Source: Rhizobiaceae bacterium
GTDB lineage: Bacteria > Pseudomonadota > Alphaproteobacteria > Rhizobiales > Rhizobiaceae
Assembly: GCA_029212415.1 (NCBI GenBank)
Contig: JARGOF010000008.1
Coordinates: forward strand, 87,521-151,520
Direction: 5' to 3'
DNA length: 64,000 bases
In this document: piece after piece, positions 44,984 to 62,700 of the stretch
Layout: every line of letters begins with the position of its first letter
How positions within the stretch are numbered: the first letter of the stretch is position 1
Translations under genes and position numbers: made by a program
Notes under the pieces: generated by a model
Database searches by the model: none
Told to the model about the DNA's origin: nothing
What the model saw: the letters and a program-made list of their open reading frames with translations, nothing else

Positions 44984-46078
44984 TTGAATATTGCAATGTC
45001 CATGCTGGACTCTGTCGGCCTGATGGCTTTGCTCTCTGTGATTCTGGGTACATTGCTCAGAACCGGATTGAGCAAATTTCAAAAATCTGTTGCCGCGGGT
45101 TTCCTGTTTGGGGGCGGTGCTGTCCTCTCAATGATGTCTCCAATAGCCATTATGCCCGGCATTATTGTGGATGGTCGCAGTGTCATGATTGGTCTTGGCG
45201 CTGCGTTCGGTGGTATACCTGCTGCCATTGTATCTGCTGCCATTGCGGCAAGCTATCGCGTTTACCTGGGAGGCTTGGGCGCCTTTCCCGGGGCGACCGG
45301 CATCATAGTGGCTGCCATTCTGGGCACGATATGGTCCAGATATCTGCGCCCCAAAGGCCGGATCAAAGTTTACCATCTTGTTGTTGTTGGTGTCATAATC
45401 TCTCTCCAGTTTGCTGTGGCTTTTTTGTTTCCCTACGAAATTGCCATCAAAATGATCTACGACGTCTATCCGATTTACTTCCTGGCCTCTGTCACAAGTG
45501 CCGTCATTTTGGGGACACTTATCGAAAGGGAGCGACGCCTGATCTCATCTGGAGCTTCATTGAAACAAGCGGCTGAAAATGACTTTTTGACGGGACTGGC
45601 CAATCGGAGGTCATTGCAAATGGCCGCATCGGACACGGAGAACCCGGCGGAATCGGGCTCACCGCGCCATACGCTGGTGGTTCTTGACCTGGATCATTTC
45701 AAGCAGATCAATGACAAGTGGGGGCACGATGCAGGCGATCGTGCGCTGGTGACTTTTGCCGACATCATGCGTCAGCATAGCCGCGCTGGTGACGTGGTCG
45801 CCCGTCAAGGTGGAGAGGAATTTGCAATTCTCATGAAAAACACGTCCCTCCCCGATGCCAAGAACGGTATGGAACGCATTTTGCAGGCAACACGAAGCAC
45901 AAAGATCGAAGGCCCTGCGGGTGGCTTCCATTTGACCGTCAGCGCCGGGATGGTGGAGTATCGTCCAGCCGAAGAATCCTTTTCGGCAGCCATGAGCCGA
46001 GCAGACGTAGCGCTTTACAATGCAAAAAGCGCGGGGCGCGATCAAATAAAAATCGCCCAATACAACAAAGCTGCATAG
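44984..46078 (+). CDS. Membrane diguanylate cyclase (5TM/LytS-like sensor plus GGDEF)
   Basis: About 6 TM helices with DGRSV motif; RAGD I-site and GGEEF. Confidence 0.9.
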   Translation: MNIAMSMLDSVGLMALLSVILGTLLRTGLSKFQKSVAAGFLFGGGAVLSMMSPIAIMPGIIVDGRSVMIGLGAAFGGIPAAIVSAAIAASYRVYLGGLGAFPGATGIIVAAILGTIWSRYLRPKGRIKVYHLVVVGVIISLQFAVAFLFPYEIAIKMIYDVYPIYFLASVTSAVILGTLIERERRLISSGASLKQAAENDFLTGLANRRSLQMAASDTENPAESGSPRHTLVVLDLDHFKQINDKWGHDAGDRALVTFADIMRQHSRAGDVVARQGGEEFAILMKNTSLPDAKNGMERILQATRSTKIEGPAGGFHLTVSAGMVEYRPAEESFSAAMSRADVALYNAKSAGRDQIKIAQYNKAA

Positions 46079-46220
46079 TATAGAAAGCAATACAGTGAAA
46101 GCATCTCATGGCCCGGTTTTTGGGGAAAATGTCTCCATTTACGGTTCATCCATGGGCTATCCTGACAATTTGAGGCAATCTGGGAACTCAAACTTCACTC
46201 AATCTTGCTATTTAATACTG

Positions 46221-47039
46221 ATGAAAAAACTTCGTGGATTTCTGCCAGACTTATATCTACCGGCTGGATGCTGGAAACGTATTGTCGTCAGGACTACTCT
46301 TCTCTCAATGATTATATGTGTGATTGCCATAGCTGGCTCCGCATTCGCAAACGACACGACGATCCAGGCTCTGCCGCTCCGCGACATAATGGTGGCCGTA
46401 GGACTTTCCATCATGTTGACCGTTCCGGTAATCGGTACGTTTGCATTCAAGATAGAAGAACTCAACCTCGCCTACGCAGAACTGCAACGTCACGCGACGA
46501 TGGATTCACTCACAGGCGCCATGAACCGCGCGGCATTCATCGCTGCAACAGAGCAACATCTGTCAAATGCTGAAAGCGGCTATAACCAATGTATTGGCAG
46601 CATATTGGCACTTGACGTCGATAGCTTCAAAACAGTGAACGATCTATTCGGGCACCATGCGGGCGACGATGCTCTCCAACGGATTGTGGCCACTGCGCGC
46701 ATGCAAATCCGCGAAGCTGACTTTCTGGGCCGCATGGGCGGGGAGGAATTTGCCATTTTTCTGGTCGGCGCGGAATTGAACCTTGCACTGACCATTGCTG
46801 AACGCGTGCGACTGGCTATCAGCGATATCCAGTTCAAGCCAGAGGGAAAATCTCACACGCTATCAGTCAGCATCGGGGTCTACACGCTTAAGGATAACAA
46901 GAGTTTTGCAGAGCTCTACCATGCAAGTGATCGCCTGCTTTACAGAGCCAAGAACAACGGACGCAACAGGGTCGAGTTTGACCACCGACAACAAGGTGCA
47001 GCGAAAACGGATGGGCGTGCTCAATTTGCCGATTCATAA
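46221..47039 (+). CDS. Diguanylate cyclase with two TM helices
   Basis: READ I-site and GGEEF; start inferred. Confidence 0.88.
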   Translation: MKKLRGFLPDLYLPAGCWKRIVVRTTLLSMIICVIAIAGSAFANDTTIQALPLRDIMVAVGLSIMLTVPVIGTFAFKIEELNLAYAELQRHATMDSLTGAMNRAAFIAATEQHLSNAESGYNQCIGSILALDVDSFKTVNDLFGHHAGDDALQRIVATARMQIREADFLGRMGGEEFAIFLVGAELNLALTIAERVRLAISDIQFKPEGKSHTLSVSIGVYTLKDNKSFAELYHASDRLLYRAKNNGRNRVEFDHRQQGAAKTDGRAQFADS

Positions 47040-47135
47040 GGACCGTCATATTTCTGCCTCCCAAGAACAAAGGTATTACGCGTTGCTAAAACCAGCGATA
47101 CGAAGACACATCATCTCTATAGATGATCAATCGAG

Positions 47136-49625
47136 ATGAAGTTCCGCAAGCCACCCATTGCTGTCCTCATTGGCCTGTCTATTGTCATACCATTGCTTGT
47201 TGTTGTCGGCATCGGTCTTTACGGAATTGTGCAGGTCCGCGCACTGGATGGTATCGCTAAAGAGGTGGAGCAAAGCCTGCTGCCCAAGCACGCATTGCTG
47301 CGCACAATCAGACAGTCGACAGCTTCGCTGAACCTGCTTGTGGCCCGACAGACCCAAAGCAATCATCTTCCGAATCTGGCTCCCGTTAGCAGTCAGATCG
47401 CCATGCTGAAATTGAAAACGGATATGGCCATGGAAGATTATGGCGAGGTTTTATACTCATCACAGGAAAAATCGACGTTCAACCGCCTGAACACGGCGAT
47501 CACCGACTACCATAATTCTCTGGCACATGCCGAGAACGCTGAAAACAAGGCGATGACGTCTCCAGAGACTGAGCAATTCTATGTAAATACCGGCAATGCA
47601 TTCGCGGCAGCATTTCAAAAAACCGACGCACTGGAAAACATTGTCCACAGACAGGTTCAGGACGCTCGATCCCGCGGCAAGGCCATCGTCCGACAGGCTG
47701 TTTTTGTCATTATGTTGCTTATTGCCGGCTCGACTGTAGCGGCCATTGTAGGAACCCTGCGCGCAATGCGGTCTGTCGCCACACCATTGGAACGCATCAG
47801 CAACGCCATGCGTCGGCTCATGGAAGGCGATGAGAATGTTGATCTGGGAGACATTGCAGGCGCAAGCGAAGAGATGTCCGCGCTCATCTCTGCAACAAAG
47901 GGCTATCGCGACAGCGTGATCCAGGCTCGGGAACTGGCAGAAGTTGCCGAAGGCAACAGAAGCCGGTTGGCATCGGCAATTGACAATATGCCGATTGGAC
48001 TGTGCATGTTTGACAATGATAACCGTCTGATCGTGTGCAATGAAAAATATTCAGCCCTCTACAAATTACGGCCGGAACTGACAGTCGCCGGCACAAGCCA
48101 TGCCGCCATCAATGCTGAACGGATCAGACAAAAAACCTTCTTTGGTTCCGATCCGGAGTCCTATCTCAGAGAAATTGAAGAAACTGTCGTTGGAAAAATT
48201 GATGGGGCCAGCATCTGCGAGATCAATGACGGACGTACTATTTCTGTGGTGTTTCAGCCTATGCGCGGAGGCTGGCTCGCTACCCATGAGGACATCACAG
48301 ACCGCCGTCGTTCAGAAGCGCGCATATTTCATATGTCCCGACACGACGCGCTGACAGATCTTCCCAACCGAACGTTGTTTAGCGAAAATGTCAACCTGGC
48401 CCTGACAAACCTTGCCGAAAACCAGCAATTGGCTGTTCTGGGTATCGACCTTGACCACTTCAAGGATGTCAACGATTCGCTTGGCCATCCTATTGGCGAC
48501 CGCGTGTTGCAGACGGTGGCAAAGCGTCTTCAGTCGACATTGCGCGACAGTGATACGGTTGCCCGCTTTGGCGGCGATGAATTTGCAGTGGTGCAGGTCA
48601 ACCCGGATCAACCGGCTGCCGCCCATGCCCTCGCGCAAAGATTGATTGATACAATCAGCAAGACGATACAGATCGATGGCCAGACGATTTCCATTGGTGC
48701 CAGCATCGGCATAGCGATGGCACCTACTGACGGAAACACCGCTGAAATTCTGCTGAAAAATGCCGACCTTGCAATGTATCGATCCAAGGAAGAAGGACGC
48801 GGTGTCTATCACTTCTTTGAACCGGAAATGGACGCACGTATGCAGACCCGTCGCCAGATGGCGCTCGATTTGCACCGCGCTCTGACAGAAGGTGAGTTTG
48901 TCCTGCACTATCAGCCACTGATGAACGTGGAGGCCAATGTGGTCTGCGGGTTCGAGGCTCTGCTTCGTTGGAATCATCCTGAGCGCGGAATGGTTTCTCC
49001 GGCTGAATTCATCCCCGTTGCCGAGGAGATAGGCCTGATCATCCCGTTGGGCGAATGGGTTCTGCATCAGGCATGCAAGGATGCAAATAGCTGGCCGGAT
49101 GATATTCGTGTCGCAGTCAATCTATCACCGGCGCAATTCCGCAGTCATCGCCTGGCAGAAACCGTGATGACGACTTTGAGTATTTCGCAACTTTTGCCCC
49201 GGCGTCTGGAATTGGAAATCACCGAAGGCGTACTGCTGACCGAGACGGAAGAAACCTTGTCGACCTTGCACCGCTTGCGCGAACTTGGCGTCTTCATAGC
49301 AATGGACGATTTTGGTACCGGCTATTCCTCCTTGAGTTATCTTCAGAGATTCCCATTCGACAAGATCAAGATTGATTCCTCTTTCGTTCGCGCGATGAAC
49401 GGCGAAGAGAATACAATGGCCATCATCCGTGCTGTCACCAGCCTGGGCGCCAGTCTTGGCATGACCACCACCGCAGAGGGGGTCGAAACAGAGGAACAGC
49501 TTGAATGGGTGCGCCGCGAAGGCTGCACGGAGGTTCAGGGGTTTTTATTCAGCAAGGGGGTGCCAGCAAATGAGGTTGGCGCGATTATTGAAAAACTTGG
49601 CAGCAAAGCTGCAGTCGCCGCCTGA
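47136..49625 (+). CDS. Sensor-HAMP-PAS-GGDEF-EAL c-di-GMP enzyme
   Basis: Two TM helices, HAMP, PAS-like region, GGDEF, EAL, DDFGTGYSSL all intact. Confidence 0.93.
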   Translation: MKFRKPPIAVLIGLSIVIPLLVVVGIGLYGIVQVRALDGIAKEVEQSLLPKHALLRTIRQSTASLNLLVARQTQSNHLPNLAPVSSQIAMLKLKTDMAMEDYGEVLYSSQEKSTFNRLNTAITDYHNSLAHAENAENKAMTSPETEQFYVNTGNAFAAAFQKTDALENIVHRQVQDARSRGKAIVRQAVFVIMLLIAGSTVAAIVGTLRAMRSVATPLERISNAMRRLMEGDENVDLGDIAGASEEMSALISATKGYRDSVIQARELAEVAEGNRSRLASAIDNMPIGLCMFDNDNRLIVCNEKYSALYKLRPELTVAGTSHAAINAERIRQKTFFGSDPESYLREIEETVVGKIDGASICEINDGRTISVVFQPMRGGWLATHEDITDRRRSEARIFHMSRHDALTDLPNRTLFSENVNLALTNLAENQQLAVLGIDLDHFKDVNDSLGHPIGDRVLQTVAKRLQSTLRDSDTVARFGGDEFAVVQVNPDQPAAAHALAQRLIDTISKTIQIDGQTISIGASIGIAMAPTDGNTAEILLKNADLAMYRSKEEGRGVYHFFEPEMDARMQTRRQMALDLHRALTEGEFVLHYQPLMNVEANVVCGFEALLRWNHPERGMVSPAEFIPVAEEIGLIIPLGEWVLHQACKDANSWPDDIRVAVNLSPAQFRSHRLAETVMTTLSISQLLPRRLELEITEGVLLTETEETLSTLHRLRELGVFIAMDDFGTGYSSLSYLQRFPFDKIKIDSSFVRAMNGEENTMAIIRAVTSLGASLGMTTTAEGVETEEQLEWVRREGCTEVQGFLFSKGVPANEVGAIIEKLGSKAAVAA

Positions 49626-49644: not shown

Positions 49645-50958
49645 TCACGGGGCCTCGAGTGGCACCAAAATCATGTCGCCATTCAGATCGACTTGCGCCG
49701 TGGCTGCAGGAGCGGATTCGGGGGTTTCGGGACCACGGTGAAACAAAAAGCCAATAAACAAAACAAACGGAAAGGCTATGCCTAGCGTGCGTAGCGGGTA
49801 ATCAACCAGCGAATGGACGAGAACAAACAGAATGGCGAGTGTCGCCGCCTTGTGCAATGGCCAGCGCAGCGTCTGCCCTACCCGCCAGGCAAACAGGCCG
49901 ATAAATACGACAATCAACAGGGCGGCAATGAGCCCCCCTTCGAAAACAAGCTCCAGATAGTCGTTATGTGCATGATTGACATAGGTCTGGAAAATCATTT
50001 CGGGCTTCTCATAGGCCGGGTAACCGGTGAGGAAATTGCCATAGCCGATGCCAAATGGCAGATTATCACGGATACCGTCCAGCGTCGTATAGGCAAATTC
50101 CAGACGCCCGTAGCCAAGATTTACCTGCTCAACCTGCAGCCGTGCCCAGACGCCCACAGAATATATGCCGAGTATGATGGAACCGCCGAGGATCGACAGA
50201 ATGCCGATCTGGCTGCGCTGAAACAGAATAATGACACTGAGAACTGTCATGGCAAAGCCGATCAGAACACCCGCAGTCGACCCCGCTGCCAGCAGGATGA
50301 GCAGCGCCGAGACTATGTAAGCTGTCAGGACGATCAGACGATTGGTCTCGATGAAATAGACGAAAGCAAACGGGATCGAGATGAAAACCAGATCGGAGAA
50401 ATGATTGACGTTGATGAAGAACCCCGCCTTGAGGTCATAGGAGAAGATATCGGTGACTATGGCGCGCCCTGTATAGGAGTACTGTATCAAGCCCGCAGTC
50501 ATATTCAGGACGACACCTGCAAGGAAATAGGGAATCAGGCCATAGGCCTGTTCGAAACGTAATTTGAGCACAGCGGTGAGAAACAGGCACAGGGTCATAA
50601 ACCAGACGGCAACTTCAACACTGCGACTGACACCCAGGCTGAGTGTCAGTGGATCAAGTCCGGGAAGCGGCATGGTTTCGGGCAGAATGCCCTGTGTCGA
50701 ACGCGTCAGACCAGAGGAAATGGGCAAGAGTTGAACGAGGATAGCAAGGCCTGCCGCCGCCATGAACCAGAAAACCCGGCGGTCGATTGCTCGGTCCATA
50801 TGTCGAAGGCAGACGACAGTCGATGTAAAGATGGCAAGCAACAGAATGCCGGTGTCCGTCGACAGGCCAGTCGTCGTGCCACCACCAAAGACCAACGCAA
50901 CCAGAAGCGTTATGCCCAGAAAATATTTATCTACATTAGAACCCACTGCCGCTTTCAT
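49645..50958 (-). CDS. O-antigen ligase / O-oligosaccharyltransferase-like membrane protein
   Basis: Many TM helices; GFFINVNHF, R in the large loop, GIGYGNF, HAHNDYLE, HSLVDYPLR. Confidence 0.85.
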   Translation of the reverse strand: MKAAVGSNVDKYFLGITLLVALVFGGGTTTGLSTDTGILLLAIFTSTVVCLRHMDRAIDRRVFWFMAAAGLAILVQLLPISSGLTRSTQGILPETMPLPGLDPLTLSLGVSRSVEVAVWFMTLCLFLTAVLKLRFEQAYGLIPYFLAGVVLNMTAGLIQYSYTGRAIVTDIFSYDLKAGFFINVNHFSDLVFISIPFAFVYFIETNRLIVLTAYIVSALLILLAAGSTAGVLIGFAMTVLSVIILFQRSQIGILSILGGSIILGIYSVGVWARLQVEQVNLGYGRLEFAYTTLDGIRDNLPFGIGYGNFLTGYPAYEKPEMIFQTYVNHAHNDYLELVFEGGLIAALLIVVFIGLFAWRVGQTLRWPLHKAATLAILFVLVHSLVDYPLRTLGIAFPFVLFIGFLFHRGPETPESAPAATAQVDLNGDMILVPLEAP

Positions 50959-52202
50959 AGACCGATATTCCTTAGCGCTACTTCATGTATCCGCATGGTG
51001 CCCGAATAGGGATAGCGGAAGCTTTCAGCGATCAGATCGGTGCCCATTTGCAGGCGCGTCATGCGGCAACTGCTGTCAGGCAGGTCAAATTCCGTCTGCA
51101 ACATTCTGTTGCGGTAGCTCCCCTCCGGGATATCAATGCGCGCAATCGCCTCCACTGGATTGATGCAGTCAATTTTCCAATAGAGGCCTCTGGGAGCCTT
51201 TAGATTGTATGCACTGGTTTCAGCACTCAGACGATATTTCCCGGCCGGAAGATAGATATATTGGCTTAAAGAAATATTTTTTACCGGTTTACCAAGGAAA
51301 CCGAGGGTCAGATTGCCGGCTGTACCGTCAGCATTGTTACCGACAATGCGTGAGATCCTCACGCCAGGGCGGTTTGCATAAGCCCAATCAAAGGGGCGCC
51401 CAGAGGGTTTCAGGACAAAATTACCGTTGAACACGTAACCGTTGTATCGCTGATCTTCCTCGTTCAGGGTCAGCAGAAAGAGCCGGTAGGCCTGGTCATA
51501 TTTCTTGTTGCGCAGAAGAGCTGACAATGTACCGGCAACTTCATTTGGACGACTGACATCGGTATCGCTGTTCAAATCCAGCTGCAGTCGGTAGGCCAGA
51601 TCCAGAGAGCTGACATCGCGGTTTAAAACGCTTAGGAACCGCCCACGCCATGGCGGCCCGGTTCGCAAGGTTGCAAGTGCTTCTTTGTAGCCTTCTGGGT
51701 CACGCAGCAAGGGCTGAATGATGACGGCGAAGGTGCTGAAATTGGAAGGCCAGCGACGAAACAGGATATCCAGTTTGGCCATTGCTTCAGCGTAGTCGCC
51801 ACCGATGATCGCAGTTGCCAAAGTGCGCTGCAGGGCAATCGCTTCCGTGCTGGAAACGGACAAGGCAGCATCATACAGTGCGTAAGCGTTTTTGGTTTCT
51901 TCGCGGGCGCGACGGATTTCTCCAAGAAGACCATAGGTCTGAGCATGGGAGGGCGCATAACGGATCGTCATTCGGGCAACTCTGTCTACATGCGCAAAAT
52001 CAACGTCGGAATCGGGTTGGATCAACCAATTGGCCAAAAAGCGATTGGCTGCTTCAGCATTAAACGGATTGAAAGAAAGCGCCTGCTGCGGCTGGGACTC
52101 GGCATAATAATTGCTAATTCCCGTTAAGGCGACCGCGCAAAAAGTCACCAGCGCGACGCATGCGAGCGCGAGTTGTTTCAATCGGATTGCTGCCATGGAC
52201 AT
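50955..52202 (-). CDS. Membrane-anchored TPR-like protein with C-terminal beta-sandwich (CBM-like) domain
   Basis: N-terminal TM, helical repeats, VFNGNF...PFDW motif, two Cys near the C-terminus; fold inferred by eye. Confidence 0.6.
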   Translation of the reverse strand: MSMAAIRLKQLALACVALVTFCAVALTGISNYYAESQPQQALSFNPFNAEAANRFLANWLIQPDSDVDFAHVDRVARMTIRYAPSHAQTYGLLGEIRRAREETKNAYALYDAALSVSSTEAIALQRTLATAIIGGDYAEAMAKLDILFRRWPSNFSTFAVIIQPLLRDPEGYKEALATLRTGPPWRGRFLSVLNRDVSSLDLAYRLQLDLNSDTDVSRPNEVAGTLSALLRNKKYDQAYRLFLLTLNEEDQRYNGYVFNGNFVLKPSGRPFDWAYANRPGVRISRIVGNNADGTAGNLTLGFLGKPVKNISLSQYIYLPAGKYRLSAETSAYNLKAPRGLYWKIDCINPVEAIARIDIPEGSYRNRMLQTEFDLPDSSCRMTRLQMGTDLIAESFRYPYSGTMRIHEVALRNIGL

Positions 52203-54483
52203 TGTTTTTTCCTGCAGTTGCAGCTGCGGCGTTTCCGCTTTCATCGCTCAAGGAGTAGTAACCCTCCGACATATACCGGTATGCATAGGCATATTCAAAC
52301 TTGTTGACGGCAAACTTCGACAGAGTTGCTCCAAAGACATTGGCACCTACACTTTTCAAACGTTTGAGAGCTGCTGCTGCACCTTTGCGAGACACCTGAT
52401 GGGCAGAAACAACCAGCAGGGTTCCTTCCACCAGACGGGCCAGAATTGGAGCATCCGAAATGCCGATCACGGGCGGACTGTCCAAGATAACGATATCATA
52501 ACGCTCGTTGCAGGCCTGAAGCAGGCGCGCCATCTTTGGCGAAGAGAGCAGATCCGGAGGATTGGGCGGGATTGTGCCTGCACTGACAAATGTCACGTTG
52601 GGAAAGCGCGTCGTTCGAAATATTTTCTTCAGATCGCCCTTCAGGACCGTATTTGTCAACAGATTGGAAAGGCCGACCACATTGTCAGTGCCAAATTTTG
52701 CATGGAGATTGGGCTTGCGCATATCCGCGTCAATCAGCAGGACCCGCAGGCCGAGCAAGGCAAAATCCTGGGCCAATTTGAAGGAGGTTGTCGATTTGCC
52801 TTCCGACGGCTCGGAACTTGTCACCAGCAGTGAGCGCGGATTGCCGTCGGTGCCAGTGAATTGCAGCGATGTGCGCAACGAGCGATAGGCCTCCGACAGG
52901 GCCGATTGCTGCTCATTCAATTGTTGGTCAATATTCCCGTCTTCCACCAGAGGCAGGATGCCCAACACGGGCAATTTCAATTCACTTTCGATCTGGTCCG
53001 GATTGGAGAAGGTGTTGTTGAGCAATTCGAGCAGATAGACGATGGCAGCAGCAAGGACCATGGAAAGCATGAGTGCAATGGCCAGATTGATCGACATGCG
53101 GGGAGAAAATGGACCGCCGGGTGGAACAGCAGCATCGGTAATCACCGTGCTTTCGCGTTTCAGCGCTGAACCAACCCCGACTTCGTTCAATTTACCGATA
53201 AGGCTTTCATATTGCGACCGATTGGAATCCACATCGCGTTTCAAGATCGTGTACTGAATATTCTTGTCCTGAAACGCGGACTGATCGGCTTCCAGTTCGG
53301 CAAGTTTGGTCCGCAGGTCCGCCTCTTTGGCTTTTGCCTCTTCATGCGAGATGCGGATGGAACTGGTGACAACCTTGACCGCCTCCTCAACCTGTTTTTC
53401 CAATTCCGTCATTTGGGCCTGAAGCTGCCTCATCTCCGGAAAATCAGGTTTCAGCAGTGAGCGCTTCTGTTGGTAGACGCCGCTCAATTCGGCGAGTCTC
53501 TCATTCAGTTTCTGGATGCCGGAACTCTCCAGAACCTGCGGCAGGCTGGCACCGCGGCCGGCCTCGATCTGCTGAACCAGACGACCTGTATCCAGCCGCT
53601 CCTGTACGGCCTTGGACAGGGCATTGTTGATATCTTGAATATTGGCTGCAATCAGCGACATTTCACTGCCGGTAACAGTGATGCCTTCCTGCTTGGCATA
53701 ATTGACCAGTGCCTTTTCCGAGTCCTGCAGCCGCTGCCTGATCTGCACCACCTGTTCCTGCATGAATTGGCGGGCAAGGTCCGAGGTTTCGCTGGTCTGG
53801 TCCACACCCTGGTCGATATAACTCGCGGCAATCTGGTTGGCAATCTGACTGGCAAAGAGCGGGCTCTGGTCGGTATAGGTAATGGCCAGAAGGCTGGTGT
53901 TCCTGATCAGATCGACAGAGAGGTTTGCAATCAAACGTCCCACGGCCATGCGTTCACGCTGTTCAGGCTCAAAATCCTCAATATTTTTACTGGTTTCATA
54001 GCCGAAGGCACGGGCAAAAATGTTGGACAGGGCAAATTGCGGCGCGGGAAATATAAATTTTGCATTGTCGGCAAGCCCCAATTCGAAAACCACACGCTGC
54101 GCAAGAGAACGGCTTTTCAGCTTCTCACGGGCAGTCTGATAAAGTCGCGAATCGGTGGATTGGGACATGAGTTCCAGATCCTGGAAGACCTTGGCTGCTG
54201 GCACCATGATTTCCATTTGGGCTGTTGCCCTGTATTGCGGTGTCTGCATCCAGGTGACCATGGTGCCGACCACAAGGCCAAGGCCCAGCAGTATCGCGAT
54301 CATCCAACGGTATTTGAGCAGGTACAGCAAAAGCGCCAGAGGATTTATGCCGTCATCGTCCTCCTCAAACGGCGTGCCATAGCCTTGTGCGTTATACCAG
54401 GGCGCATAGGGTGCCATCTCGCCTTGGGAGGGGTGCATCTGACCGGGAACAGGCGGTCTGCCCTGATTGGGGTTATTGAGCAT
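52114..54483 (-). CDS. Wzc/GumC polysaccharide co-polymerase with tyrosine autokinase
   Basis: Two TM helices, coiled coil, Walker A SEPSEGKST, DADMR, DSPP, Tyr-rich tail YAYAYRY..GYY. Confidence 0.94.
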   Translation of the reverse strand: MLNNPNQGRPPVPGQMHPSQGEMAPYAPWYNAQGYGTPFEEDDDGINPLALLLYLLKYRWMIAILLGLGLVVGTMVTWMQTPQYRATAQMEIMVPAAKVFQDLELMSQSTDSRLYQTAREKLKSRSLAQRVVFELGLADNAKFIFPAPQFALSNIFARAFGYETSKNIEDFEPEQRERMAVGRLIANLSVDLIRNTSLLAITYTDQSPLFASQIANQIAASYIDQGVDQTSETSDLARQFMQEQVVQIRQRLQDSEKALVNYAKQEGITVTGSEMSLIAANIQDINNALSKAVQERLDTGRLVQQIEAGRGASLPQVLESSGIQKLNERLAELSGVYQQKRSLLKPDFPEMRQLQAQMTELEKQVEEAVKVVTSSIRISHEEAKAKEADLRTKLAELEADQSAFQDKNIQYTILKRDVDSNRSQYESLIGKLNEVGVGSALKRESTVITDAAVPPGGPFSPRMSINLAIALMLSMVLAAAIVYLLELLNNTFSNPDQIESELKLPVLGILPLVEDGNIDQQLNEQQSALSEAYRSLRTSLQFTGTDGNPRSLLVTSSEPSEGKSTTSFKLAQDFALLGLRVLLIDADMRKPNLHAKFGTDNVVGLSNLLTNTVLKGDLKKIFRTTRFPNVTFVSAGTIPPNPPDLLSSPKMARLLQACNERYDIVILDSPPVIGISDAPILARLVEGTLLVVSAHQVSRKGAAAALKRLKSVGANVFGATLSKFAVNKFEYAYAYRYMSEGYYSLSDESGNAAAATAGKNNVHGSNPIETTRARMRRAGDFLRGRLNGN

Positions 54484-54546
54484 GACCGCCCCGTTTCCGA
54501 AGATCAGGCTGGTCAGGTTTCATGGATAGCATGCGAAGCGCCCTAA

Positions 54547-55341
54547 TCATGGCACCAATACCATTGTACTAGCGGCCAGACGCGTGACATCGAGCAGGTT
54601 GCGCATGGCAACCTTGGTGGCCGATGAAAAGACGACGATGACATCGCCACCGTATATCAACGGGTCTGGTCTTTTACCGGAACGAATGCTGCCGACGTGG
54701 TAATTTGCGACAAGTTGCTGCTCGCCATATTTGCGGTAGACATAGACTTTGGATTGATCGGCAATTCGCGTCAAACCACCGGCCTGAGAGACGACCGCGA
54801 GAAGCGAGGATTCTGCCGTGACCGGATAAATACCTGTCTTGGCAACCTCGCCATTGACCACAACGCGCTGGCCGATGGATTCCTTGACGAAAACACTGAC
54901 TTCGGGAGACTGAAGATATTTCTGGCCATATTTGGCTTCAATTTTCTTTGCCAGTTCACTGACGGAATTTCCGGCAGCTTCGATCTGTCCGATCAATGGC
55001 AAAGCGATGTAGCCAAGGGAATCGACCTGAACAACACGGTCCAGTTCATCCACCTGAAAAACGTCGACCTGAAGCACGTCATTCTTGGCAATTTGCTGGG
55101 ATGCGCCGTCTTCGCCCGTCGGCGGCGGCGGCAGTTCCTTGACGACACGAAGTCCGCCGGCGCTGGCACCCGGGATTGCGGCTGTTTGCATGCTGCTGGT
55201 CGTTTGCGATTGGCCAACGCCAGGCCCACCATTGGTATCAACACAGGCACTGATGCCAAAACATAGCAACACAAGAAAAAACAATCGCCCGATCCGGTCG
55301 GCGAAATGGTGCGGGGACAAAAGCTGGGACAGGGGGCTCAA
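54547..55341 (-). CDS. Wza/GumB polysaccharide export lipoprotein
   Basis: Lipobox ISAC, Poly_export and SLBB-like motifs; TTG 55341 overlaps the phosphatase stop (alternative start 55371). Confidence 0.9.
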   Translation of the reverse strand: MSPLSQLLSPHHFADRIGRLFFLVLLCFGISACVDTNGGPGVGQSQTTSSMQTAAIPGASAGGLRVVKELPPPPTGEDGASQQIAKNDVLQVDVFQVDELDRVVQVDSLGYIALPLIGQIEAAGNSVSELAKKIEAKYGQKYLQSPEVSVFVKESIGQRVVVNGEVAKTGIYPVTAESSLLAVVSQAGGLTRIADQSKVYVYRKYGEQQLVANYHVGSIRSGKRPDPLIYGGDVIVVFSSATKVAMRNLLDVTRLAASTMVLVP

Positions 55342-56144
55342 TGCATGTCCTTTCGCATCAATTTCTTCCAAAGACTTTGGCTTTCCTTTTTTCGCGCAAC
55401 GGTAACCCTGTTCCGCTGGCCTTGAGGCACAATCGATTCATCGGCCAGAATCTGCGCCGGTCTGGTCATGACCATGGCTATGGCCTGCGCTTCACCCAAC
55501 CGTTCAGCAACCGAATCACGGGCGGCGGAAAGAATGGGAGGGCGCCCACTGACATTATGTGCATCGCTGGCAAGAATGTCTACACGCCCCTCATCCAGCA
55601 GCCTTTCGGCATAATAGAGCGCCGTCTTGCCAAATGCACCGGTGATCGAGCCCGCCGTGATCTGCAACAGACAACCGATCTGATTGAGCCGCTCGATCGT
55701 GTCATAATGATGTTCAAGCCAGGTCAGGCGCTCCGGGTGGGTTAGAATCGGCACATAGCCGGCATCAACCAGCTGTGTCGCCAAGTCTTCGATGCGCGGC
55801 GGCAGGACGCGATGGGTTGGCTCGAACAGGAAATAGCGTGTGCTGTTCAACGTGGGGATATGACCGGCATCCAGCGAGGATAGAAGGTCCGGTGCGATAT
55901 GCACGTCGGCCCCCAGAACCAGGCGCAAATCCAGTTCTTCCTGCTCGAGCTTCATCTGCAAAGACTGCATTGCGCTGCCAATCGATTGAGCGGTATTGGC
56001 CCAAAGACCAGGAATAATGTGGGGTGTGCAGGCCATGCAACTAATGCCATCGCCCACGGCCATTCGCGCCATCTTCAAGGATTCCCGGAGGTCTGTCGCA
56101 CCGTCGTCAATGGCAGGCAGGATGTGGCTATGAAGATCGATCAT
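55338..56144 (-). CDS. CpsB/CapC-family PHP protein-tyrosine phosphatase
   Basis: MIDLHSHILP.IDDG, TPH, THPER, ASDAH. Confidence 0.93.
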   Translation of the reverse strand: MIDLHSHILPAIDDGATDLRESLKMARMAVGDGISCMACTPHIIPGLWANTAQSIGSAMQSLQMKLEQEELDLRLVLGADVHIAPDLLSSLDAGHIPTLNSTRYFLFEPTHRVLPPRIEDLATQLVDAGYVPILTHPERLTWLEHHYDTIERLNQIGCLLQITAGSITGAFGKTALYYAERLLDEGRVDILASDAHNVSGRPPILSAARDSVAERLGEAQAIAMVMTRPAQILADESIVPQGQRNRVTVARKKESQSLWKKLMRKDMH

Positions 56145-56234
56145 GGTTCAAAAAGCAATCAACTGCCCTGCTCCAGGCAAAACCAATTGAAGCTCCGCCA
56201 GGATCCGGCAGGCTGTGCGTCGGCAGCAGCCACT

Positions 56235-56987
56235 TCAATCTGATACGGAATCCTCTCCACCAGACAGGGCAAGCGCTACAATCCCACCCACACCAGCAAG
56301 CCCCAGAACAACAAGCGCGACAGAATTATCGTCATCATCCTCAGTTTGCGCAGTGTTGGGAGCGGCATTTGGAGTCGTGCCATTGTTGGCGGGCACAGGG
56401 TCGTTCGGAGCGGCATGAACAGCTCTGGCAGTATCCAAGGTCGTTGCCCCAGTGGTTGGCGACGTGGGCAGAGGAACATTGCGGCCTCCACGGACGGCTG
56501 TGTCCGGCACAGGCGGAGATACCACGACCCCCGACCGCGTCACATCCCCCAGAATAAATGGGTCAGCAAAGGCGGATGTGGCTTCCAAGGGAGCAAGCTC
56601 TACGTCGGCCGTCGTTGTCTGATCAAGGACGCGGACGCAAATCTTCGCATCGACGGGATCGAGCACAACATCCTGGTTCGCGCTGACCTGCAGAGGGCAC
56701 TTATCGCCAAGAGAAAGAGAGGCGGATGACCGCGGACCCACGATAATGCGGCTTCCGCCGCTCAACATGGCTCCCACTTTCGAATCGGAAAAGCCGGTTG
56801 CACCGGAGACCTGCACACGGCCATCAACAGCAACGATGGATCCAACAGGCTGCCCGGATACACTGGCAGGCACAAGGCAGCTGCAATCATCCAGTGATTG
56901 CGACTGCGCAAAGGCATTCACGGGCATGAAATTCAACGCGGTAACCACGGCAAGACCATGTATTGACACAGTTTTCAACACATTCAT
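56235..56987 (-). CDS. Secreted hypothetical protein: Cys-containing beta domain, Pro/Thr/Ala-rich linker, C-terminal TM anchor
   Basis: Signal peptide ending AFA-Q, four Cys, low-complexity linker, DDDDN-TM-GGEDSVSD tail. Confidence 0.75.
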   Translation of the reverse strand: MNVLKTVSIHGLAVVTALNFMPVNAFAQSQSLDDCSCLVPASVSGQPVGSIVAVDGRVQVSGATGFSDSKVGAMLSGGSRIIVGPRSSASLSLGDKCPLQVSANQDVVLDPVDAKICVRVLDQTTTADVELAPLEATSAFADPFILGDVTRSGVVVSPPVPDTAVRGGRNVPLPTSPTTGATTLDTARAVHAAPNDPVPANNGTTPNAAPNTAQTEDDDDNSVALVVLGLAGVGGIVALALSGGEDSVSD

Positions 56988-57459
56988 GAAAATTCTCCGA
57001 TTTCGCCACCCAACATGCAGACCGACATAAAGTAAAACGTTTCAATAAAGCCTGCATTCAAATTTCATACTGCACTTCATATCACACAAAACATTAATGA
57101 CACATTCATCTTAAAGTAGCAACTGTTACTTAGCCTCTTTGGTGCAACAAATCCGGGCGAAAATCAACCCCCTGTTTGGGGTATCTCCGTAACGCACGCA
57201 GAGATAAATTTGTTATTAACCCCCTATATTTCCGGACTTGTGAGGGTTCAATTCGCATATTTTTCGTACAGCCGAAGCGGCATCGCGAAAAGCCTCCCGC
57301 CATGGCCATTGCATGTGCGGGCGAGAATAATATACTTTAAATATTTCCGTGAACGGCGAAGTAATTGTGGGGATTGTCACTTCAAAATAACGTGCGGTTG
57401 TGGCTACATTATGACGAGACCCTGTTTTCGTTGCTTATCAACAGTCGGCGCTGCTGGAT

Positions 57460-57816
57460 TTATCGGGGCTTGGCAATCTCCAGAAGGCCAATTGCCAGAC
57501 GACGCATGAGCAACCCCACCAAGGCACCCGCGCCCGTGCCCACAACATCCGCGTAAAAATCAGGCCAAGCACCCTGACGGCCAAAGATTGGCTGGATCAT
57601 TTCGATGCCACCGCCAAACAGGACCGCGAAAGGCAGCAACCATTTCAATGCGCGCGGGTAGAGAATGGCGCTCGGCAGTGTCAAGGCAATAAAGCCGATC
57701 AGATGACCGGTCTTGTCCGTACCCGGCATGGCGATGGGAAGCTGTGTGTGGGACAAGGCCAGGCATGCAATAACAAGAGCCGCAATCGCAGTCGATGCGA
57801 ATGCGATGCCTTTCAT
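57460..57816 (-). CDS. VanZ-like membrane protein
   Basis: DKTGH, GIEMIQ..GR, DFYAD..G. Confidence 0.85.
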   Translation of the reverse strand: MKGIAFASTAIAALVIACLALSHTQLPIAMPGTDKTGHLIGFIALTLPSAILYPRALKWLLPFAVLFGGGIEMIQPIFGRQGAWPDFYADVVGTGAGALVGLLMRRLAIGLLEIAKPR

Positions 57817-57873: not shown

Positions 57874-58749
57874 TCAATGGCCTTCGGACAGATCCTTGAG
57901 ATAACGACCGTAATCGTTTTTGTTGAAAAGGTCTGCCCTCAGCTTGAGTTGTTCTTTGGATATGAAACCCATGTGACAGGCAATTTCATCGGGCGAGCCA
58001 ACCTGCTGGCCCTGACGCATGGTCAGAGTGCGCACGAAGTTTGCAGCGTCAAGCATGCTGCTATGGGTGCCCGTATCAAGCCAGGCGTAACCGCGGCCCA
58101 TTGTTTCGACATTGAGTGACCCCTCTTCGAGATACAACGAAAGCAGATCGGTGATCTCAAGCTCGCCGCGCGCCGACGGTTTGACCCGCGCCGCAAAATC
58201 CGGCGCGCGCCCGTCAAGGAAATAGAGCCCGGTCACGGCGTAATTGGATGGCGGCGTGACTGGTTTCTCAATGAGTTCGCTGACCCGCCCCTGTTCATCG
58301 AAGCCGACAACGCCATAGCGTTCCGGGTCGGAAACACGATAGCCGAACACGGTTCCGCCGACCTGCCTTGCATCGGCAATCGCCAGTTGTTCCGGCAGCC
58401 CGTGACCAAAGAAGATATTGTCGCCCAGGACCATTGCCGAGGGTGCGCCATCAAGAAATTCCCGCGCCAGCAGGTAGGCCTGGGCAAGGCCGTCAGGAGA
58501 GGGTTGAATGATATAGTGGAACGAGACGCCCCACTGACTACCGTCTCCGAGAACGCGCACGAATTGCGGCTGATCTTCCACGGTGGTGATGATGGCTATT
58601 TCACGAATACCGGCATGCATCAGCACGCTCAGCGGATAATATATCATCGGTTTGTCGTAGACCGGCAGGAGCTGTTTCGACACACCGATTGTGATGGGGT
58701 AGAGGCGGGTGCCGGAACCGCCCGCAAGAATGATCCCTTTTCGCTTCAT
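57874..58749 (-). CDS. rmlA: Glucose-1-phosphate thymidylyltransferase
   Basis: [28 protein letters not shown]. Confidence 0.97.
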
Positions 58750-59600
58750 GGCATCGCATCCATTTCCTTGAGTACTTTGGTAATCCCGTCTCTCCAGTCT
58801 GGCCGTTGCAAACCGAAAACAGTCTCTGTCCGGCTGCAATCCAGCCGCGAATTCATGGGTCGGCGCGCCGGGGTCGGATAGTCCGCAGTGGCAATATCGG
58901 CGACTGTTGTCGGGCACCCTGCCTGCGCAAAAATTTTCCGGGCAAAATCAGCCCAACTGACGTCGGGAGCGGCTGAAAAATGATAGGTACCTGACAGACC
59001 CCGGTCCGAACCCAATTGCCTGCCGATTTCAAGGACCGCCCGGGCCAAATCAGACGCAGGTGTTGGCCCGCCGATCTGATCGGCAACCACACGCAGCGTG
59101 TCATGCGTTTCTGCCAGGCGCAACATTGTCTTTAGAAAATTACTGCCGTGCGCCGAGAAAACCCATGAGGTGCGCAAAATGGCATAGGCGCCGCCTGCGG
59201 CGCGCACGCCATCTTCGCCGGCCAGTTTGCTGCGCCCGTAGGCGCTGATCGGCCCGACAGGTGCATCCGCAGGCCAGGGCGTCTTGCCGGAGCCATCGAA
59301 GACATAGTCCGTCGAGATATGAACAAATGCCGCTCCGATCCGGCGCGCAGCCGCGGCCATTGCCGACGGCGACGCGCCGTTGATCAGCGTGGTAATGTCC
59401 TCTTCGCTCTCCGCACGATCGACTGCGGTGTAGGCTGCTGCGTTGATCACAATCTTCGCCCCACTTTCGGCGATCAGGCGGGCACAGGCAGCAGGCTGGG
59501 CAAGATCGGCTTCCTCGCGTCCGACGAAGCGTGCTTCCGGCGCGATCCGGGCAAGTTCCGATGCCACCTGCCCCGTCCTGCCGAAGACAAGAACATTCAT
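58746..59600 (-). CDS. rmlD: dTDP-4-dehydrorhamnose reductase
   Basis: [28 protein letters not shown]. Confidence 0.96.
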
Positions 59601-60637
59601 GCTTTCGTTCCCAGCCGATGCCCGACGCCCTTGCGATCCAGCAGGGGCCGCCACCAATCCTCGTTTTCCAGATACCAGCGTACGGTGCGGGCGATGCCGT
59701 CCTCAATCGTCACCGATGGACGCCATCCCAGTTCGGTTCGAATACGGGACGGATCAATGGCATAACGGCGGTCGTGGCCCGGCCGGTCCGGCACGAAGGT
59801 GATCAATTGGTCGTGCGGCGCACCATCGGCATGCAGGCGATCAAGTTCCGCACAGATCGTGCGCACCAGATGGATATTGGTCGCCTCGTTCTCGCCACCG
59901 ATATTGTAGGTGCGCCCGGCCTGGCCGCCCTCAAGCACGGTGAGCAGGGCGTCGGCATGGTCTTCGACATAGAGCCAGTCACGCACATTGCCGCCGTCGC
60001 CATAGACGGGGATGGCCTCGCCCGCCAGGGCCTTGATAATCACCACCGGGATCAGTTTTTCAGGAAAATGATAGGGTCCATAGTTGTTGGAGCAATTGGT
60101 GACAAGAACGGGCAGCCCGTAGGTCTCCGACCAGGCACGCACCAGGTGGTCAGATGATGCTTTCGATGCAGAATAGGGCGAACGCGGGTCATAGGGCGTA
60201 TCCTCTGTGAACAGCCCCGTCCCGCCGAGACTGCCAAAGACTTCATCGGTGGAGATATGATGGAAGCGGAAGCCATCTGGCCGGCCCTGCCCGTCCCAAA
60301 AGGCCCGCGCCGCCTCCAGCATATTGAATGTGCCCAGGACATTCGTCTCGATGAAATCAGCCGGGGCGTCGATGGACCGGTCAACATGGCTCTCGGCGGC
60401 CAGATGCATCACGGCGTCCGGCGCATGACGGGCAAAAATGGCATCGAGCGCAGCCCGGTCGCGGATGTCGGCTTTCTCGAACTGATAGAGCGGGCTGTCT
60501 GCAACGTCGGCCAGATTGTCCAGGCAGGCCGCATAGGTGAGCGCATCCAGATTCACCACCGCGTGGCCGCGCGCCATGGCGAGGCGGATGACTGCTGAGC
60601 CGATAAATCCGGCGCCTCCGGTGATCAGGATCTTCAT
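59597..60637 (-). CDS. rmlB: dTDP-glucose 4,6-dehydratase
   Basis: [27 protein letters not shown]. Confidence 0.97.
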
Positions 60638-61194
60638 ACCTTACGCTCCCACACAAATGGCGATGTCCAGTTTTCGAACGCAGGTGCGGCAGCATCCTTG
60701 GCGGAAAGCACGGGATCGCCGGCGGCCTGCCAATCAATGGCCAGGCTGTCCCATCGGACCGCACCATCGCTTTCGGCCCCATAATAATCGCTGCATTTGT
60801 ATTGCACTTCGGTGTCTGCAACCCGCGTGATGAAACCGTGGAGGAATCCCTTGGGCACCAGGAGTTGTCGGCCATTTTCCGCCGTCAGTTCCATGGACAG
60901 CCAATCGCCATAGGTGGGAGACCCTTTGCGCGCATCGACCACCACATCGAGGATGGCGCCACGGGTGCAGGAAATCAGCTTGTCCTGCGCATGGGGCGGC
61001 GCCTGATAGTGGAGGCCTCGCAGGGTCTTTTCTTCAGCGGAAAAGGAGTGGTTGTCCTGGACAAAATCCAGTGCAATGCCTGCATTTTGCATTGTGCGCC
61101 GGTTCCAGGTCTCCGAAAACCAGCCCCGGTTGTCACCAAATCTGCGGGGTGTCAGGACAAGGACGCCTTCCAGCTTTGTCTTTTCAGTCTTCAT
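60634..61194 (-). CDS. rmlC: dTDP-4-dehydrorhamnose 3,5-epimerase
   Basis: DNRGWF, QDNHS, LRGLH, FLHGF. Confidence 0.96.
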
Positions 61195-61422: not shown

Positions 61423-62700
61423 TTAGAGCCTGCCGTCAGAGCGATTTTTCTCAAATATGCCTTTGACATCAAAAAACACCGCGCCGGGCCGGCCCAATTG
61501 GCGAATGCGTTCAGCGCCCATGGCGATAAATTCCTGGTGACCAACGGTTAGAATGATCGCATCATATTGACCGGGTTCAGGTGGTTTATCGAGAAGGTCA
61601 ATGCCGTATTCCTGACTGGCTTCAGATCTCAAAACCCAGGGATCATGAACGTCGACCTTGGCATTGAAGCCGTCCAGCTCCCGGATCACATCGATGACTT
61701 TGGAGTTTCTGAGGTCAGGGCAATCCTCCTTGAAAGAGAGCCCCATCACGAGAATGCGACTTCCGACCACGGGAAAGCCGTTCTTCATCATCAGGCGGCT
61801 GACCCGATTGGCCACATAGGGACCCATGCCATCATTGATCCGGCGGCCGGCGAGGATGACTTCTGGATGATAGCCGGCCTCCTGGGCGCGGTGCGTCAGA
61901 TAATAGGGGTCAACACCTATGCAGTGACCGCCCACCAGTCCGGGTCGAAATGGCAGAAAATTCCATTTGGTACCTGCAGCCTCAAGCACATCATTTGTAT
62001 CGATACCGAGCCGTTCAAATATGATGGCCAATTCGTTCATCAGGGCAATATTGAGATCGCGTTGGGTATTTTCGATGACCTTGGCAGCTTCGGCCACCTC
62101 AATGTTTGCTGCCTTGAAGGTGCCGGCTGTTATGATCCTGCCGTAAAGCGCGTCGACTGCGTCGGCTACCTGTGTCGTGGAGCCGCTCGTTACCTTTTTT
62201 ATCAGTGGAATGCGGTGCAGCTTGTCCCCGGGGTTGACCCGTTCGGGGCTGTAGCCGGTATAAAATTCCTCGTTGAACCTCAGACCGGAAACGGCTTCGA
62301 GAATGGGAACACATACGTTTCGCGTGCACCCGGGGAAGACGGTGGATTCATAAATCACAACGCCGCCTTTCTTCAGAGCGCGGCCAACCGTCTCAGACGC
62401 TTTTTTCAAGGGCGTCAGATCGGGTCGCTTGGCACCGTCGATCGGCGTTGGAACAGTCACGATGAAAATCTGGCAATCTTCCAGATCGCGCTCGCTGGAG
62501 GTAAAACCGAGACGTTTTGATGCCGAAAGCTCGTCGGAAGTTACCTCGCGCGTTTCGTCATGGCCATTTTTCAATTGCTCAATTCGTGCAGGCTTGATGT
62601 CAAAGCCGACAATTTCATGGAACTTCGCGAATTCCACCGCAAGCGGCAGGCCAACATAACCAAGCCCGATAACGGCAATCTTTTTTGTACTCAAATCCAT
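61423..62700 (-). CDS. UDP-N-acetylhexosamine 6-dehydrogenase (WbpO/TviB/CapL-like)
   Basis: [34 protein letters not shown]. Confidence 0.93.

Follow-up and report, generated by a model that had tools for sequence, protein, structure and literature searches.

The window analysed here, a stretch of 64,000 nt from a Rhizobiaceae genome (positions 87521-151520 of contig C76; 5.84 Mb in 85 contigs) with marine Rhizobiaceae metagenome-assembled genomes (MAGs) as its closest database relatives, carries a polysaccharide export operon that ends in a gene for a membrane enzyme with a Wzy_C domain. This enzyme, which by sequence is related to the PglL-type O-oligosaccharyltransferases (O-OTases), and the proteins encoded with it are the subject of this report. 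Six co-oriented open reading frames (ORFs) lie on the minus strand at 49645-56987, as a first-pass annotation made from the sequence had described and as checking of the ORF coordinates confirmed. These six genes are very probably the conserved part of a Wzx/Wzy-dependent pathway for a capsule or exopolysaccharide (EPS), namely its core for export and assembly.

The first gene (56235-56987) encodes a protein of 250 aa without a Pfam match, here called the lead protein. It is followed by genes for a CpsB/CapC-type PHP tyrosine phosphatase of 268 aa (55338-56144; CpsB_CapC PF19567, 188.8 bits), the partner of the Wzc kinase, for a short Wza-type outer-membrane polysaccharide export (OPX) lipoprotein (54547-55371; Poly_export and SLBB domains, lipobox ISAC), and for a Wzc-type polysaccharide co-polymerase (PCP) and bacterial tyrosine (BY) kinase of 789 aa (52114-54483), with Wzz, GNVR and P-loop kinase domains and a C-terminal Tyr cluster. 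The fifth gene (50955-52244) encodes a membrane-anchored, periplasmic protein of 429 aa that resembles tetratricopeptide repeat (TPR) and carbohydrate-binding module (CBM) proteins, with only weak TPR matches in the profile search, and the sixth (49645-50958) encodes the Wzy_C-domain membrane enzyme of 437 aa, which scores 44.4 bits against Wzy_C (PF04932, cut-off 31.7 bits). An OPX protein, a PCP-2a BY-kinase with Tyr cluster, a cognate phosphatase, Wzx and a priming transferase are all present in the locus, which is a group-1-like Wza/Wzc capsule or EPS export system, differing in that the phosphatase is of the PHP/CpsB type rather than Wzb and that Wza is short.

The four genes with overlapping junctions counted previously proved to be three overlapping junctions involving five genes: the CpsB and Wza genes overlap by 34 nt (longest ORF assumed), the Wzc and TPR/CBM genes by 83-131 nt according to which start codon is used, and the TPR/CBM and Wzy_C genes by an ATGA, consistent with translational coupling. 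Small gaps separate the lead and CpsB genes (90 nt) and the Wza and Wzc genes (63 nt). The operon is preceded by an AT-rich intergenic region, reported earlier as 470 bp and measured here as 472 bp (56988-57459; GC content 0.444 in 57000-57499 compared to approximately 0.55 nearby), which is presumed to hold promoter or regulatory elements; a sigma-70 consensus scan of this gap gave no match on the minus strand. A terminator-like hairpin (49599-49622, minus strand) lies 23 nt past the stop codon of the Wzy_C gene, within the end of a convergent GGDEF-EAL gene.

Sequence kinship of the Wzy_C enzyme

The two motifs noted at first reading of the enzyme were both found, HAHNDYLE at residues 329-336 and the C-terminal HSLVDYPLR at residues 382-390, the latter being an invariant motif of the family. 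Residues invariant in the family are R285, N328, H329, H331, E336, E340, H382, D386, Y387, P388 and R390, with N328, H329 and H331, at the catalytic H-x-H-N motif, invariant in 26 homologs. Within the genome, the HSxxDYP motif was present only in this one of the four Wzy_C paralogs; of the three others, two stand by themselves with a GT4 or an acyltransferase gene as neighbour, and one lies in a GT4/Bac_transf cluster. By the helices of the AlphaFold model, the helix after the catalytic loop would have the HSLVDYP motif at its periplasmic end, with the topology inferred. For comparison we used Wzy_C_2-bearing proteins from Pseudomonadota as a PglL-type set (12 aligned), one of which is an ortholog of the solved O-OTase 9rmk_A (933 bits). 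Of 14 Wzy_C_2-bearing loci that were inspected, 12 carried an HSxxE[Y/F]P motif, and HSxx[D/E]YP is located approximately 52 residues past H-x-H-N in both groups, with the same spacing wherever both motifs were detected.

Kinship was assessed by hhalign, using the profile of the window's enzyme family against alignments or single sequences. The 12-protein PglL-type alignment was matched with a probability of 99.1% (E 5.6e-19) over 269 columns, and the 9rmk_A ortholog, as a single sequence, with 75% (E 2.5e-5). Sinorhizobium meliloti ExoQ, the sole polymerase reference, reached 15.7% (E 1.6e-3) over 85 columns around the catalytic motif, a Wzy_C paralog of the same genome 1.7% (E 0.029), and the second Wzy_C protein of a Mesorhizobium plasmid 0.8% (E 0.069), while there was no detectable similarity to Escherichia coli K-12 WaaL (0.3%, E 0.21). 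The PglL-type profile does detect WaaL (81.5%), and the missing WaaL match is therefore specific to the family of the window's enzyme. A phmmer search of the PDB with the single protein found nothing, and the only PDB match of the family profile was 9rmk_A, at a non-significant E of 0.16. As judged from these alignments, the enzyme is much closer to PglL-type O-OTases than to E. coli WaaL, ExoQ or its own paralogs.

Conservation of the cassette across Alphaproteobacteria

The gene order small secreted protein-CpsB-Wza-Wzc-protein of ~400 aa-Wzy_C recurs in M. ciceri, Hoeflea sp. TYP-13, an Agrobacterium leguminum plasmid and a Mesorhizobium sp. 113-3-3 plasmid, and the set of sugar and glycosyltransferase (GT) genes beside this cassette differs in each of the four. 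One genome each of 185,579 species (GTDB) was scanned for the peptides NHAHN[DE][YF]L and HS[LV]VDYP[LM]R, which gave at least 568 loci, in Hyphomicrobiales, Sphingomonadales, a Caulobacteraceae MAG, Methylocystis and others. Among the best 80 of these at least 568 loci, tblastn detected homologs of the TPR/CBM protein (71/80), Wzc (70/80), Wza (65/80) and CpsB (36/80), with the TPR/CBM gene usually located immediately upstream of the Wzy_C gene. The Caulobacteraceae MAG locus holds the same four-gene core of Wza, Wzc, TPR and Wzy_C.

The Wzy_C enzymes of the cassette share 27-72% identity beside unrelated GT sets, and a separate polymerase candidate accompanied the cassette in 4/4 inspected loci. 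In the contig of the window and in Hoeflea (there on the same strand and contiguous with the cassette) this candidate is an EpsG protein, a family that is the usual kind of Wzy polymerase; on the Mesorhizobium plasmid it is a second, unrelated Wzy_C protein, and in A. leguminum a protein with ten transmembrane (TM) helices and no family match, encoded inside the GT block. The presence of these candidates in the four loci indicates that the Wzy_C enzyme of the cassette is probably not the repeat-unit polymerase.

The product of the fifth gene belongs to an uncharacterised family and had no significant family match. Its AlphaFold model (predicted local distance difference test score, pLDDT, 89.6) has a TM helix at residues 7-47, a TPR superhelix at 52-265 and a beta-sandwich at 295-426, and this sandwich resembles CBM4, CBM22, CBM61 and a hyaluronan-binding module (target-normalised TM-scores 0.55-0.71), which bears out the CBM-like label given to it earlier. 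The idea that it might be a split-off version of the PglL C-terminal domain was followed up by comparison with that domain, which gave only a generic TPR match (probability 50%). Across Alphaproteobacteria the TPR/CBM protein is the constant, translationally coupled neighbour of the Wzy_C enzyme.

The lead protein family

The lead protein of the window has a Sec signal peptide, with the putative cleavage site NAFA/QSQ, and a linker at residues 118-215 that consists for 30% of Pro and Thr. Past the linker come the acidic patch DDDD, a hydrophobic run of 23 uncharged residues rich in Gly and Ala, and EDSVSD as the tail. A BLAST-level search found 11 relatives, the long Pro/Thr linker being confined to the six closest, with the others 149-173 aa in length. 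The family was then collected with an iterated profile, which placed it in 51 of 92 loci; the statistics of the C-terminus cover 56 members. Its conserved features are a signal peptide, a beta domain with four Cys residues, a short spacer, the Gly/Ala-rich hydrophobic run and a short, mostly acidic tail. The spacer before the hydrophobic run has a family median of approximately 24 residues compared to 110 in the window's protein, and outside the closest relatives it ranges from 12 to 50 residues and differs in composition, so that the Pro/Thr linker, the acceptor proposed in the first-pass annotation, is not a conserved element of the family; a short spacer rich in Ala, Gly, Ser, Thr and Pro precedes the hydrophobic run in all lead proteins. 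The tail ends in [V/A]-S-x, with Ser at position -2 in 52/56 members and Val at -3 in 43/56.

The lead gene is genetically tied to the Wzy_C gene. It is located at the head of the operon in 40 of the 51 loci, directly upstream of the Wzy_C gene in 9 and directly downstream in 2, these 11 directly adjacent cases including loci in which the Wzy_C gene is separated from the CpsB-Wza-Wzc-TPR genes, and the two genes share a strand in 49/51 loci. Co-occurrence of lead protein, TPR protein and ligase, which the first-pass annotation had proposed as a check, was seen for the pair of TPR/CBM protein and ligase (71/80), and only in part for the lead protein (51/92 loci).

Seven of 13 lead proteins matched positions ~4-75 of the 145 positions of the LapA retention module NF033682 (best E 4.2e-6), with the window's protein at 15.9 bits against a cut-off of 50, suggesting that the four-Cys beta domain resembles the first half of this module. 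In other Alphaproteobacteria, open frames of giant size (3000-6900 aa; for example G201:C2:181688, G462:C1:2360056 and 1150792) were matched at their N-termini by the beta domain of the lead profile, which fits a retention-module-type fold that the lead proteins share with large adhesins. As the domain matches many unrelated proteins as well, genome co-occurrence of lead and Wzy_C proteins at the level of the class is not clean. By a crude sum on the Hessa scale, the hydrophobic run is a clear TM helix in 3/56 members and exceeds 2 kcal/mol in 34; the window's protein is the most TM-like of the 56 (-1.5, compared to -1.0 and -2.0 for two TM helices from the same operon). The run also has acidic flanks, and the tail may thus be either periplasmic or cytoplasmic.

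Two processing routes were considered and rejected for the lead protein. Cleavage of the LapG/HvyA type is not a general feature of the family, as a [TAP]AA[GV] site occurs in only 9/56 spacers. The second was a link to the PEP-CTERM/exosortase system, to which the locus had been likened at first: the exosortase is encoded on another contig, TIGR03097 is absent from the genome, and the lead protein carries no sorting signal, as its comparison with NCBIfam matched no sorting-signal family and its tail is acidic, not basic. The Wzy_C enzyme likewise had no match in an NCBIfam search, including the exosortase-associated ligase TIGR03097. Elsewhere in the genome there are two BTLCP genes (LapG/HvyA-type, Peptidase_C93; C69:203168-203641 and C23:99850-100320), and an exosortase (543-aa frame, C48:42052-42816) with a further partial match (C48:46648-46869) marks a PEP-CTERM-type system. 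Several Mesorhizobium loci (L047, L048, L049, L051, L052 and L080; ~3400-4730) have two lead paralogs in tandem, the first with a weakly hydrophobic run of 15-16 residues and a conserved SEQTAA(A/V/I) past the beta domain, the second with a 23-residue run, and both ending in DDD(D/N)(A/G)VSR.

Flanking genes and the wider contig

Upstream of the 472-bp gap lies a co-oriented block for sugar precursors on the minus strand, of which a VanZ-like small membrane protein (57460-57816) is the last gene. A domain search identified the remainder as rmlA, rmlD, rmlB and rmlC for dTDP-rhamnose synthesis (57874-61194), a UDP-sugar dehydrogenase family protein (61423-62700) and a Bac_transf priming phosphoglycosyl transferase of 456 aa (62841-64000, extending beyond the window), orthologs of which flank the cassette in many relatives. 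Past the window, the contig contains a LuxR-like gene, an outer-membrane protein beta-barrel and a GT4 gene, and then a long plus-strand block with genes for Ugd, an epimerase, DegT, a Wzx flippase, six GTs, methyltransferases, AsnB and an EpsG-family protein. With Wzx and EpsG, a flippase and a candidate polymerase are thus present even if the Wzy_C protein is left aside. The polysaccharide locus has two divergent halves, and between them, upstream of the plus-strand GT/Wzx/EpsG block, lies a NusG/RfaH-like gene (contig 157927-158439) that may encode an operon-specific antiterminator. The variable glycan block also includes, beside DegT, a formyltransferase domain fused to ankyrin repeats (contig 161715-162875), which is an unusual architecture for a sugar N-formyltransferase.

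On the plus strand of the window, three consecutive cyclic di-GMP (c-di-GMP) genes at 44984-49625 (5TMR-LYT-GGDEF, GGDEF and 4HB_MCP-PAS-GGDEF-EAL) run convergently towards the 3' end of the export operon, with 19 bp between the stop codon of the third and that of the Wzy_C gene, and control by c-di-GMP of the EPS exported by the operon is a possibility. On the plasmids of Agrobacterium and Mesorhizobium, genes for MucR-family regulators adjoin the cassette or lie close to it (L015:13093-13527; L017:33935-34456). MucR controls capsule genes in Caulobacter (PMC4241560), and a regulator of the MucR type might act on the AT-rich leader of 472 bp in the window.

A putative en-bloc transferase in the export operon

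We propose that the cassette combines a glycan-independent export core with a PglL-related en-bloc transferase and its TPR/CBM partner, the lead protein being a candidate acceptor, and as a whole we hold the chances of this proposal to be evenly balanced; it joins gene content, conservation, linkage and sequence kinship, which are observations, to a transferase role, partner roles and an acceptor that we infer. Repeat units would be primed by the adjacent Bac_transf enzyme; the variable block 8-40 kb upstream on the contig would then provide for building them, flipping them (Wzx) and polymerising them (EpsG-type Wzy), and the short Wza lipoprotein would move the polymer out together with Wzc and the cognate PHP phosphatase CpsB. 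At the periplasmic face, the Wzy_C enzyme would take the finished chain off undecaprenyl diphosphate and transfer it onto an acceptor or onto water, with the TPR/CBM protein as a membrane-anchored working partner that may hold the glycan, the enzyme's partner, or both. Where present, the lead protein would be the best candidate for partner or acceptor, with the likely site near its conserved C-terminal end and not in the Pro/Thr linker. The Wzy_C enzyme itself is, in our view, more probably a PglL-related en-bloc transferase or release enzyme than a repeat-unit polymerase.

A number of results weigh against this proposal. Among the profiles that could place the enzyme as the PglL-like ligase of the first-pass annotation, Wzy_C was matched, and PglL_A and Wzy_C_2 were not: PglL_A (PF15864) gave no match at E<0.1 and, in a scan of the genome, nothing at the locus and nothing above the cut-off anywhere, while the match to Wzy_C_2 (PF11846) covered only profile positions 5-38 and, at 13.6 bits, was under the cut-off of 28.5 bits. 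The protein ends 47 residues after the HSLVDYPLR motif and so is without a PglL-like C-terminal periplasmic domain, the longer open frames seen in relatives being upstream read-through or low-complexity tails. The PglL-like label is thus borne out by profile kinship, motif and spacing, and not by domain content; the enzyme is PglL-related by its sequence, yet outside the PglL family as defined by Pfam. Foldseek with the AlphaFold model (pLDDT 81) against the PDB returned RodA at E 0.1 and then noise, but since it missed both the WaaL and the O-OTase structures, this fold search cannot classify the protein. In 23 full-context loci, mostly from Sphingomonadales, the ligase and TPR/CBM genes are present without a lead gene. 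In this genome the hydrophobic run of the lead protein looks like a true TM helix, and as such it would leave the conserved tail cytoplasmic, where a periplasmic transferase does not reach. By convention the Wzy_C protein of an EPS operon is named a polymerase, a pathway can have two polymerases (as with HfsC and HfsI), and a single characterised Wzy_C-type polymerase, ExoQ, was included in our comparison. For this family member the proposal draws on sequence, linkage and conservation, and the likeness to the Caulobacter locus described below is taken from the published description.

The acceptor cannot be either the lipid A-core or the lead protein in all carriers of the cassette. The 23 loci without a lead gene argue against the latter, and the presence of the family in Sphingomonadales, which are known to lack lipopolysaccharide and a lipid A-core, means that a role like that of WaaL cannot be general. 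A ligation in which lipid A-core or some other lipid of the outer membrane receives the polymer, so that the capsule becomes lipid-anchored in the manner of K-LPS (lipopolysaccharide-linked K antigen), we consider highly improbable: the Wzy_C domain with the catalytic H-x-H-N and conserved Arg residues, and conservation irrespective of glycan structure, would fit a ligase, whereas the enzyme shows no profile similarity to E. coli WaaL, its gene ends a Wza/Wzc operon outside any core-LPS cluster, its family is common in Sphingomonadales, and the genome has three other Wzy_C proteins, two of them stand-alone, that could serve as WaaL. Glycosylation of Ser/Thr residues in the Pro/Thr linker of the lead protein by a PglL-type O-OTase, resulting in a protein-tethered capsule or glycoprotein layer as first suggested, is unlikely too. 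PglL substrates have low-complexity regions rich in Ala, Gly, Ser, Thr and Pro, such as the short spacer common to all lead proteins, and both the PglL kinship with its shared HSxx[D/E]YP motif and the linkage of the lead and Wzy_C genes agree with such a pairing. The 100-residue linker is restricted to the six closest relatives, though, many loci are without a lead protein, a membrane-spanning hydrophobic run would hold the protein in the inner membrane and give no surface layer, and neither PglL_A nor Wzy_C_2 reaches its cut-off. Slightly more credible, if still doubtful, is that the lead protein of Hyphomicrobiales is a dedicated acceptor for a PglL-related transferase forming part of the Wza/Wzc machinery, which receives the finished capsule chain from undecaprenyl diphosphate in its C-terminal region, at the penultimate Ser or in the adjacent spacer, and whose retention-module-like domain, presumably too bulky for the outer-membrane channel, would tether the chain in the way that LapA-type adhesins are held.

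The strongest alternative, which we regard as a possible but rather improbable one, is that the Wzy_C protein is an EPS polymerase of the Wzy type, serving as the main polymerase or as an additional essential one, with the TPR/CBM and lead proteins as accessory subunits of polymerase or co-polymerase and no ligation taking place. The Wzy_C domain, a gene in one operon with the co-polymerase Wzc, the weak alignment of the catalytic-loop region with ExoQ and the lack of an additional periplasmic domain for protein recognition are all consistent with it, and in the scheme of Ardissone et al. (2014, PMC4241560) the export-locus enzyme of Caulobacter appears as a polymerase, as does CCNA_00470. A polymerase would be expected to vary with its GT set, whereas the enzyme of the cassette is conserved beside unrelated ones; a separate polymerase candidate was seen in each of the four inspected loci, and the similarity to PglL-type enzymes is far stronger than that to ExoQ.

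The cassette bears on how Wzy-dependent capsules and EPS leave the lipid carrier, and then stay on the cell or are released. It puts a PglL-related enzyme, a predicted glycan-binding TPR protein and often a small secreted partner inside the export operon, and does so in hundreds of alphaproteobacterial genomes, including those of genetically tractable rhizobia and relatives of Caulobacter. If the enzyme performs the release or anchoring step, this would explain why Caulobacter needs two 'polymerase-like' genes, and a glycan-promiscuous transferase would be added to the glyco-engineering toolbox; a lead protein acting as dedicated acceptor would amount to a protein-primed or protein-anchored capsule and make enzyme and acceptor an O-OTase pair of a new class. 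Should the enzyme be just a second polymerase, there is nothing unusual about the locus. The export genes themselves are ordinary, and the Caulobacter system has already been studied genetically; as far as we searched the literature, the PglL kinship, the obligate TPR/CBM partner and the lead family with its retention-module-like domain and V-S-x end have not been described.

Comparison with known systems

In group-1 capsule loci the export region is conserved and adjoins a variable one that contains wzx and wzy, and the layout found here is the same, except that the conserved region additionally holds the Wzy_C enzyme. Among the rhizobial EPS systems, S. meliloti ExoP/ExoF/ExoQ and Rhizobium leguminosarum PssP/PssN/PssT likewise comprise Wzc-, Wza- and Wzy_C-type proteins. 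ExoQ differs in lacking HSxxEYP and in its weak match (15.7% over 85 columns), the published descriptions of the Exo and Pss clusters that we consulted mention no CpsB, TPR/CBM or lead gene, and the published work on PssP2 contains no gene set that matches the cassette. The mtpABCDE genes of M. tianshanense, likened to pssNOPT in a review, are a possible counterpart of the cassette.

The capsule export locus of Caulobacter crescentus NA1000 (CCNA_00162-00168; Ardissone et al. 2014, PMC4241560) is another group-1-like system from the Alphaproteobacteria; it encodes Wza, Wzc and a metal-dependent phosphatase of the PHP type, and shares with the window an 'O-antigen polymerase/ligase' beside Wzc, a protein of ~420 aa and a priming transferase alongside. 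The genes for the GTs, for Wzx and for a separate polymerase lie outside the export locus in NA1000, and both polymerase-like genes are individually required, with the polymerase CCNA_00470 located on a mobile element (PMC4241560). It differs in its gene order, in the longer CCNA_00164 (at least 620 aa) and in the presence of the protease HvyA in the locus; in the Caulobacteraceae MAG locus no lead-type gene was seen.

PglL-type O-OTases (Wzy_C with Wzy_C_2; PDB 9rmk_A) have in common with the cassette enzyme the H-x-H-N core and the HSxx[D/E][Y/F]P motif ~52 residues further on. The cassette enzyme differs from them in being without the C-terminal periplasmic domain of ~180 aa, and in being encoded inside a Wza/Wzc operon and paired with a separate TPR/CBM protein. 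A parallel in enzyme size and gene arrangement is offered by TfpO/PilO and TfpM, small Wzy_C-only enzymes that are encoded beside a dedicated pilin acceptor and glycosylate Ser/Thr at or next to its C-terminus, with TfpM modifying the penultimate Thr and able to transfer long polymers (Knoot et al. 2022, PMC9829042). The candidate acceptor of the cassette is no pilin, and its conserved Ser follows a hydrophobic run, which sets the two apart. By description they are alike in that the lead proteins carry Ser at -2 (52/56) and that the lead gene lies beside the enzyme gene in rearranged loci, and this likeness to the pilin-specific O-OTases is notable, as a parallel rather than a demonstration.

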